A DNA stretch of 64,000 nucleotides from a virus, in IMG/VR virus record IMGVR_UViG_3300028042_000006, positions 6,818-70,817 of that record; one strand, given 5' to 3'. The notes under the pieces are model-generated. The model was not told the DNA's origin. It saw nothing but the letters and a program-made list of their open reading frames with translations, and searched no databases. Shown piece by piece: positions 454 to 852 of the stretch. Each line of letters begins with the position of its first letter. The first letter of the stretch is position 1. The translations under genes were made by a program, and so were the position numbers.

Positions 454-852
454 TCTCTGGCTTTGATGGTCGAAAGACAAGGTTAAAGAGTCTCCACTCT
501 AAGTTACCTGCAAACATCATGTAAGACCAGAGGTTCTAAGTTGTCACGTTCTAGTGGCAATATGACAGCCGATTGCCGGATTGGAAACGATACAGAGGTT
601 GGTCGCTCAGGCAACATAGACCATAAGCCTATTAGAGTAGGCACCAACGAGCCTTAGCAATCCTTTCTTTAGGGCTCTGCGGAAACCATTCAACGAACCT
701 TAGACTTGCATAGCTTAGGGTTCTGCGATATGATACACAGTTGAGGACAGGGGTAAGACCGCCCTGCAATCTTGGAGTGCTATTACAGTAGCCAGAGAGA
801 TTTAACCAGGGGAAACTAACCTTGGGAGTGACACCGGTTCACTGTGTATCAG
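454..852 (+). ncRNA. candidate large structured non-coding RNA
   Basis: ~400 nt with no long ORF, GC-richer than flanks. Helices: GTC-GAAA-GAC 469-478, 541-560, ATTG-GAAA-CGAT 580-591, 627-642, twin hairpins 645-681 and 691-727, long-range 731-741/841-851, 806-825. G-U pairs favour the + strand. Confidence 0.6.

Follow-up and report, generated by a model that had tools for sequence, protein, structure and literature searches.

The stretch of DNA considered here, referred to as the window, comprises 64,000 nucleotides and corresponds to bases 6818-70817 of a 74,616-base virus record, whose genome is about 90% complete and may lack its left end. It encodes a portal protein of the SU10 type and, in a row, three proteins of about 2,000 amino acids, a combination that identifies its source as an N4-like phage (Schitoviridae). 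Parts of this genome are contained in sequencing runs of hydrothermal-vent metagenomes. Two sites in the window, positions 454-916 (region 1) and 20487-21327 (region 2), are free of open reading frames and together harbor three copies of a short hairpin, which we refer to as the module. Region 1 lies between convergent genes, with the gene for a 769-aa protein on the plus strand on one side, and region 2 follows a gene for a NAMPT-like protein. Outside the module, the two regions show no mutual similarity, and their neighbors comprise the 769-aa protein, which has a predicted TerD fold, a 319-aa protein and NAMPT.

The 769-aa protein has no sequence match in Pfam, PHROG or the PDB. Its N-terminal part is predicted to be helical, while a fold search with a structural model predicts a TerD fold for its C-terminal part (3ibz, 2kxt; probability 1.0). 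Homologs with 42-58% identity are encoded inside arrays of tRNA, tmRNA and YrlA-like RNA genes in N4-like relatives, as in contig L117, where the order is tRNA-Met, tmRNA, the gene for the 769-aa homolog, tRNA-Leu and a YrlA-like RNA. A YrlA-like tRNA mimic is also found to the left of the window (40 bits, E 4e-7 to 6e-9), at a score below the Rfam gathering score, and related hairpin RNAs of the form CGGUUACU(U/A)C...CCAAAC...ACCGAU are present in the same record and upstream of the homologous gene in two further contigs (L112, L116). The phage was found to encode no TROVE-domain protein; a reading of the 769-aa neighbor itself as a TROVE protein was ruled out, and no link to the module follows from it.

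In the entire 74.6-kb genome, the pattern CAACGARCCTT-N15-AGGGYTCTGCG has three matches (genome positions 7462, 7508 and 27909), all of them on the plus strand, compared with 0.00 matches in shuffled sequences, which bears out the three identically spaced copies described in an earlier note on this DNA. The copies align without gaps and consist of the 5' flank CAAC, a 9-bp stem, an 11-nt loop and the 3' flank TGCG, adding up to 37 nt. Alignment and pair counts likewise uphold the covariation of the stem claimed in that note, with a G-C pair replaced by A-U in copy 2 and the top two pairs, A-U and G-U, replaced by U-A and C-G in copy 3. A U-G wobble at stem pair 6, previously described as kept in all copies, is indeed present in all three copies of the window, but it is not a family-wide feature, since two relatives carry C-G instead. 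As RNA, each copy has the module hairpin as its minimum-energy structure (-10.8, -10.9 and -15.9 kcal/mol for copies 1, 2 and 3, respectively). The degenerate half-copy that follows copy 3 may be what is left of a tandem copy after decay, or it may offer the 3' arm an alternative pairing partner. The features of the locus and of its relatives are compiled in the table.

Table. Positions of the module and of associated features. Plain numbers refer to the window; positions on other records are preceded by the name of the record.
Feature	Position	Strand	Description
769-aa protein gene	1-453 (full gene G000:C1:4961-7270)	+	predicted helical N-terminal part and C-terminal TerD fold
Upstream non-coding RNA	468-623	+	sole part of window 1-2400 in a vent RNA-library contig (depth about 10)
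E hairpin	597-623	+	5-bp stem, conserved 14-nt loop; stem covaries, UGGUC/GACCA vs UAGUC/GACUA
Module copy 1	645-681	+	4-nt 5' flank CAAC, 9-bp stem, 11-nt loop CAATCCTTTCT, 3' flank TGCG
Module copy 2	691-727	+	9 nt past copy 1; stem pair 3 is A-U; loop ACTTGCATAGC
Four-way junction cargo RNA (predicted)	731-851	+	behind copy 2; long closing stem and three hairpins in the predicted fold
Terminator-like hairpin	878-905		between convergent units; closes region 1
300-nt RNA	16029-16328	+	ORF-free, about 300 nt
F element	21035-21083	+	just 5' of copy 3; 82% identity to a stretch of L086 about 100 nt downstream of its module
Module copy 3	21092-21128	+	top two stem pairs U-A and C-G; loop AACTTGGCGGG
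Linker behind copy 3	21129-21139	+	AU-rich, TTGTTTTATGT; aligns with the conserved linker TATGTTRYATG of relatives
Degenerate half-copy of module 3	21180-21198	+	5' flank, 5' stem arm and loop; about 50 nt 3' of copy 3
tRNA-Stop, anticodon UUA	L088 637-709; L108 550-622; L111 693-765	-; +; +	
tRNA-like mini, 57 nt	L087 1567-1623; L108 689-745	-; +	no D arm; ACCA end
Similar mini	L086 965-1026	-	CUA in 8-nt loop
YrlA-like tRNA mimic	G000:C1:4192-4304 (L005 4192-4304)		left of the window
Hairpin RNA with CGGUUACU motif	G000 4839-4915		related RNAs also precede the homologous gene of L112 and L116
GCACCTATGC motif	L087 about 1546-1573	-	
GCACCTATGC motif	L088, L111		after tRNA-Stop
GCACCTATGC motif	G000:C1:4542-4569, 4693-4720		

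In region 1, the module is preceded by an E hairpin, an element that five lineages (the window, L087, L088, L108 and L111) carry ahead of the first module in their arrays. The RNA-library contig that covers the upstream non-coding RNA continues past position 623 into the module and ends 8-11 nt inside it. This contig is the one RNA-library contig for region 1, and such contigs display neither the strand nor the ends of the RNA; none of the listed RNA runs contained region 2. Segment 468-623 is thus probably an abundant, stable RNA, and the contig suggests that it is continuous with the start of the module. Behind copy 2, the predicted four-way junction RNA includes a hairpin at positions 779-792 that shows two double compensatory changes in a metagenome relative (779G>A/792C>T and 780C>T/791G>A). 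Two vent-metagenome DNA relatives carry a single module in place of the pair found in the window (joints 675>722 and 679>730), and one of these two has unrelated AT-rich DNA before position 645, yet it keeps the module and the downstream RNA. These one-module joints and the AT-rich replacement argue that region 1 is modular rather than one obligatory 400-nt RNA. Modules also appear to have been shuffled relative to their surroundings, because the F element lies 5' of copy 3 but 3' of the module in L086. Predictions of sigma-70 promoters and of terminators gave nothing beside the modules except for one weak terminator-like call at copy 3, and ARAGORN detected no tRNA in the window or in the 6.9 kb to its left.

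Elsewhere in the window, the ORF-free 300-nt RNA shares 81.5% identity with L087 and L108, despite unrelated flanking proteins, and in both of these contigs it is immediately followed by the E hairpin and the module. Its consensus fold comprises 84 pairs, 11 of them with compensatory changes, and has no match in Rfam; a 25-mer derived from it returned 0 matches in IMG/VR. A further peculiarity of the genome is the 7-mer TGGTTCT, of which the 74.6 kb contain 137 copies where about 9 would be expected, for instance at window positions 877, 11556, 16020 and 50418. Since it is found on both strands and also inside genes, it is not a promoter motif.

Six further copies of the module are contained in five metagenome contigs, two of them in L108 and one each in L086, L087, L088 and L111. 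Those in L086, L087 and L088 were identified by a metagenome scan, whereas L108 and L111 were fetched by means of a small neighboring protein, and the nine-copy alignment analyzed below combines these six sequences with the three copies of the window. A search for the motif in relatives, as proposed in the earlier note, thus led to contigs in which the scaffold is fixed while the loops vary at a fixed length, a pattern that holds for all nine copies. In IMG/VR, by comparison, no copy of the module was found (exact pattern, 0 matches; pattern with free stem bases, 8 unpaired chance matches; broadened pattern, 0 matches), and neither were relatives of three neighboring proteins. The genomes of 185,579 cellular species also contained no module (0 matches; with a loosened pattern 11, all of them in unpaired coding sequence). 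A search model (R1) detected no module in the five closest portal relatives (G001-G005), two of which (G001 and G003) gave no blastn match to any of the RNA parts, and region 1 had no blastn match in the phage collection. None of the Rfam 15 families reached its gathering score in the window, and when the two regions were scanned permissively, all matches were at chance level. The family is therefore small, comprising one genome and five short contigs, and most of the similarity within it may be due to descent.

The stem is paired on the sense strand in 81 of 81 cells across the nine copies, with three pairs changed on both sides. Its covariation score amounts to 0.438, compared with 0.198 in shuffles, and is reached in 0 of 500 shuffles; a shift of the 3' partner by one column lowers pairing to 68-72%. 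In addition to the replacement of the U·G wobble by C-G in two copies, one copy carries G·U at the closing pair. The reverse strand, by contrast, pairs in only 85% of the cells, three positions accounting for 12 A·C mismatches. When folded as RNA, all nine copies adopt the module hairpin as their minimum-energy structure (-10 to -16 kcal/mol, z -2 to -3.9), whereas the ten folds obtained for single-stranded DNA (five copies, both strands) are all weak (-2.6 to -5.8 kcal/mol), and eight of them are no better than shuffles, the exception being both strands of the second L108 copy (L108b). The paired strand is also the sense strand of the tRNA genes located behind the module in relatives. Given that pairing is kept on the sense strand and broken on the opposite one, and that the RNA hairpin is stable whereas its single-stranded DNA counterpart is only marginally so, we favor an RNA element over a DNA element, noting that the strand argument is carried by three independent wobble positions only.

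In contrast to the scaffold, the loops are unrelated in sequence in all nine copies, although each of them measures exactly 11 nt, so that the lack of similarity noted earlier for the three loops of the window extends to the whole family. The divergence of the loops is most evident in a comparison of L087 with the corresponding copy of L108. Upstream of the module, 2 of 504 bases differ between these contigs (0.4%), and the module outside the loop together with the linker shows 1 difference in 36 positions (0 of 13 in the 5' flank and stem, 1 of 23 in the 3' stem, flank and linker), whereas 7 of the 11 loop bases have changed (64%). Similarly, L111 and L088 have the 5' flank and more than 100 nt of downstream sequence in common but differ in their upper stems and loops, and the inner part of the L111 module equals that of the second copy in L108. 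Within the lineage of the window, on the other hand, the loop of copy 1 is maintained, with 0 changes in one relative and at most 2 in another that is about 11% diverged downstream. Loops thus behave as discrete alleles that are exchanged rather than as sites of steady hypermutation, as is evident from two contigs that are near-identical upstream yet differ in 7 of 11 loop bases. A search for loop complements, which the earlier note had recommended, revealed none within 400 nt of the modules and none in the phage genome beyond the chance distribution. The proposal that a loop acts as an anti-Shine-Dalgarno sequence consequently finds no support, resting as it does on one of nine unrelated loops.

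In relatives, the module stands in a fixed position relative to tRNA-like genes. In L088, L108 and L111 it ends exactly 10 nt before a gene for tRNA-Stop(UUA), and the same 10-nt spacing separates it from a tRNA-like mini gene in L087 and L108; besides an acceptor stem and a T arm, this mini RNA has an ACCA end that is encoded in the gene, but it lacks a D arm. The distance to the next structure deviates from 10 nt in three copies, namely copies 1 and 2 of the window and the copy in L086, which sits within a cluster of tRNA-Gln, tRNA-Trp and tRNA-like pieces. The linker TATGTTRYATG is found solely beside modules in these sequences and never before protein genes. In L108, tRNA-Stop is separated from the next module by 20 nt without a terminator, which indicates that the second module is transcribed within a precursor. 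As a whole, the arrays are mosaics in which the E and F elements, the module, the tRNA-like mini, tRNA-Stop and the 300-nt RNA appear in differing orders among contigs. The same inner module, for example, precedes tRNA-Stop in L111 and the tRNA-like mini in L108, while L087 lacks the tRNA-Stop unit that is present in L108. A tblastx comparison of L108 with the phage of the window detected no common protein, the similarity being limited to non-coding RNA parts. As side observations, the set of tRNA-Stop and mini genes looks like suppressor tRNAs or tRNA decoys, and a shared motif, GCACCTATGC(A/G)T..AATAGG, forms a small hairpin behind the last RNA gene of the arrays and may act as an array terminator. 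Collectively, these findings establish the module as a real, conserved and previously undescribed small RNA motif, which is characterized by a positional rule and by loop exchange and belongs to no described RNA family.

As to its role, we tentatively favor the idea, at a probability somewhat short of even, that the module is a cis-acting RNA leader hairpin by which every cargo RNA of a modular phage non-coding RNA array is marked for recognition or processing. The array would be produced as one long precursor from the plus strand, with each module followed by a cargo, be it a tRNA, a tRNA-like mini or another compact structured RNA. The conserved stem with its wobble pair and the two flanks, CAAC and TGCG, could then be recognized by a protein, which would define or shield the boundary where a cargo is freed from the precursor. 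A host factor is a likelier reader than a phage factor, because the phages that share the module have no visible protein in common. Release might involve a cut in the AU-rich linker, followed by the action of RNase P at the 5' end of the cargo. The loop would not be read under this scheme and could therefore drift and be exchanged between copies by recombination inside the conserved arms. If so, its strict length of 11 nt is left unexplained.

The most serious competitor, which we nevertheless regard as unlikely, is a promoter for a phage RNA polymerase, in which the hairpin, the 3' flank and the AU-rich linker put the start site at the G of the cargo, giving rise to leaderless tRNA-like RNAs. 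The genome is N4-like and thus belongs to a group that uses DNA-hairpin promoters, and it contains no other repeated family of hairpins with 3-nt loops. N4 has three early promoters, and the hairpin recognized by its virion RNA polymerase features a 5-7 bp stem and a conserved 3-nt loop with a central purine (PMC4496689). In LUZ7, whose RNAPII uses hairpin promoters, the middle promoters, of which only four were found, are GC-rich hairpins with a stem of at least 6 bp and a loop of 3-4 nt, and transcription starts at a G about 15 bp downstream of them; early promoters can be arranged in tandem, 33 nt apart (PMC9163698). The module resembles these elements (N4 P1-P3; LUZ7 early and middle promoters) in its phage group, in its conserved hairpin and flanks and in its low copy number, the three copies per genome equaling the number of N4 early promoters; moreover, two of its copies are in tandem. 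The base of its stem lies 15 nt before the first G of the cargo in five cases, and in these copies both this distance and the stem length fit a LUZ7-type RNAPII promoter. The size of the loop does not, as it comprises 11 nt of variable sequence instead of a conserved 3-4 nt loop with a central purine. N4-type recognition furthermore needs a hairpin on the template strand, whereas the module pairs on the non-template strand and its template stem contains 12 A·C mismatches in 81 cells; its hairpin is also weak as single-stranded DNA, given that the majority of folds (8/10) are no more stable than shuffles. The genomic context points in the same direction, since N4 early promoters lie at the left genome end before protein genes, whereas the three copies of this genome, at 7462, 7508 and 27909, all precede ORF-free RNA regions and no copy stands before a protein-coding early or middle gene. 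A promoter role is also at odds with the extension of the RNA-library contig into the module and with the presence of the module in phage fragments without a visible common protein.

Other explanations assign the working part to the loop or return to DNA. The fixed scaffold could be bound by a protein, with the 11-nt loop serving as a guide, decoy or kissing partner in conflicts between phage and host or between phages, and with selection keeping its alleles diverse. We consider this idea improbable, even though it would account for nine unrelated loops of exactly 11 nt, for the sharp contrast between loop and surroundings in L087 and L108, for the distinct upper stems and loops between the common flanks of L111 and L088 and for the maintenance of the copy 1 loop in its own lineage. 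The same pattern is expected from neutral loops combined with exchange between paralogous copies, neither the surrounding 400 nt nor the phage genome yielded loop complements in excess of chance, and the exact position before each cargo would be left unexplained. In its boldest form, which is quite improbable, this idea describes a programmable RNA unit with an invariant protein-bound scaffold, whose exchangeable 11-nt loop picks a target or partner, such as a host defense or translation factor or a competing phage; it would be coupled to suppressor-type tRNAs and tRNA mimics, and its alleles would be swapped between phages as 20-nt mini-cassettes. It is very unlikely that the module acts as a DNA recombination site, with the sense-strand hairpin read in single-stranded form by a recombinase that reshuffles RNA-gene cassettes in the manner of integron attC sites. 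Cargoes have indeed been reshuffled relative to modules, as illustrated by the swap between L111 and L108, the absence of tRNA-Stop from L087 and the presence of one or two modules in relatives of the window, but ordinary homologous recombination between 37-nt modules is sufficient to explain this behavior. The restriction of wobble pairs to one strand is presumably comparable to the bias seen in attC bottom strands, and the AAC at the end of the flanks and the GTT in the linker are, we assume, reminiscent of attC R boxes. The stem sequence is almost invariant, however, whereas attC sites are conserved in structure rather than sequence; no integrase or other recombinase was seen beside any copy, and the weakness of the single-stranded DNA hairpin again argues against a DNA site. 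Hardly credible, finally, is an idle duplicated hairpin or a mimic of a host CRISPR repeat or type III antitoxin repeat, despite the very small and partly descent-related family and a length of 37 nt, which falls in the range of CRISPR repeats. Idle sequence is difficult to reconcile with a stem and flanks that are near-identical while loops have fully diverged and neighboring genes are unrelated, and with compensatory changes that preserve the stem. The CRISPR-repeat mimicry considered in the earlier note fails because the genomes of 185,579 species contain no paired match and because the loop differs in every copy, and a ToxI-like antitoxin RNA is contradicted by the lack of a tandem array of identical repeats (no more than two copies stand together, at a spacing of 46 nt, and their loops differ) and of an adjacent toxin gene; an adjacent cas gene is likewise absent. 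Readings of the module as a K-turn, C/D box, pistol or hatchet ribozyme, boxB-boxA element (nut or rrn) or dif-like site were dropped upon inspection by eye, the defining bases being absent.

Arrays of tRNA and small RNA genes are common in phages, and the way in which their units are expressed and separated is mostly obscure. The module constitutes a compact signal, recognizable in sequence, that travels with tRNA-Stop genes, D-arm-less tRNA mimics and other structured RNAs and moves between phages without visible common proteins. If it is a processing or recognition mark, as we tentatively propose, this hints at a factor, of host or phage origin, that acts on such arrays. A promoter function, in turn, would widen the known range of N4-like hairpin promoters, and a loop that is read would amount to a new small programmable RNA. 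In each case, the divergence of 64% in the loop versus 0.4% in the flank offers a clear handle for experiments.

Several known systems share individual properties with the module. Plasmid copy-control RNAs and the c4 RNA of phages P1 and P7 combine, as we understand them, a conserved scaffold with loops that differ between close relatives, as observed here, but the module differs from such kissing-loop or antisense hairpins in that it has no complementary target loop. A second likeness is provided by the bacterial Y RNAs (YrlA, YrlB), which are bound by Ro60 or Rsr and unite a conserved protein-binding stem with a variable loop and a tRNA-like domain. The proposed Rsr motif is GNCGAA, and the Ro60-binding 5' strand of Y RNAs reads GNCGAAN0-1G (PMC4201824). 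The 5' strand of the module, AACGA(A/G)CC, is loosely similar to this sequence, representing a partial match without the first G. In YrlA, however, the binding helix is formed by the two ends of the RNA around the tRNA-like domain, whereas the module is a separate hairpin in front of it. The tRNA cluster of phage T4 and bacterial tRNA operons, finally, are polycistronic and are cut by RNase E and RNase P. The known spacers of such operons do not contain a sequence-conserved 37-nt hairpin that is repeated before each gene, and none is listed in Rfam. The module nevertheless resembles the leader and spacer processing signals of such operons in that it lies between structured RNA genes in an ORF-free array, with one copy per downstream unit, and in that only a short, AU-rich, single-stranded linker separates it from the mature 5' end of a tRNA.
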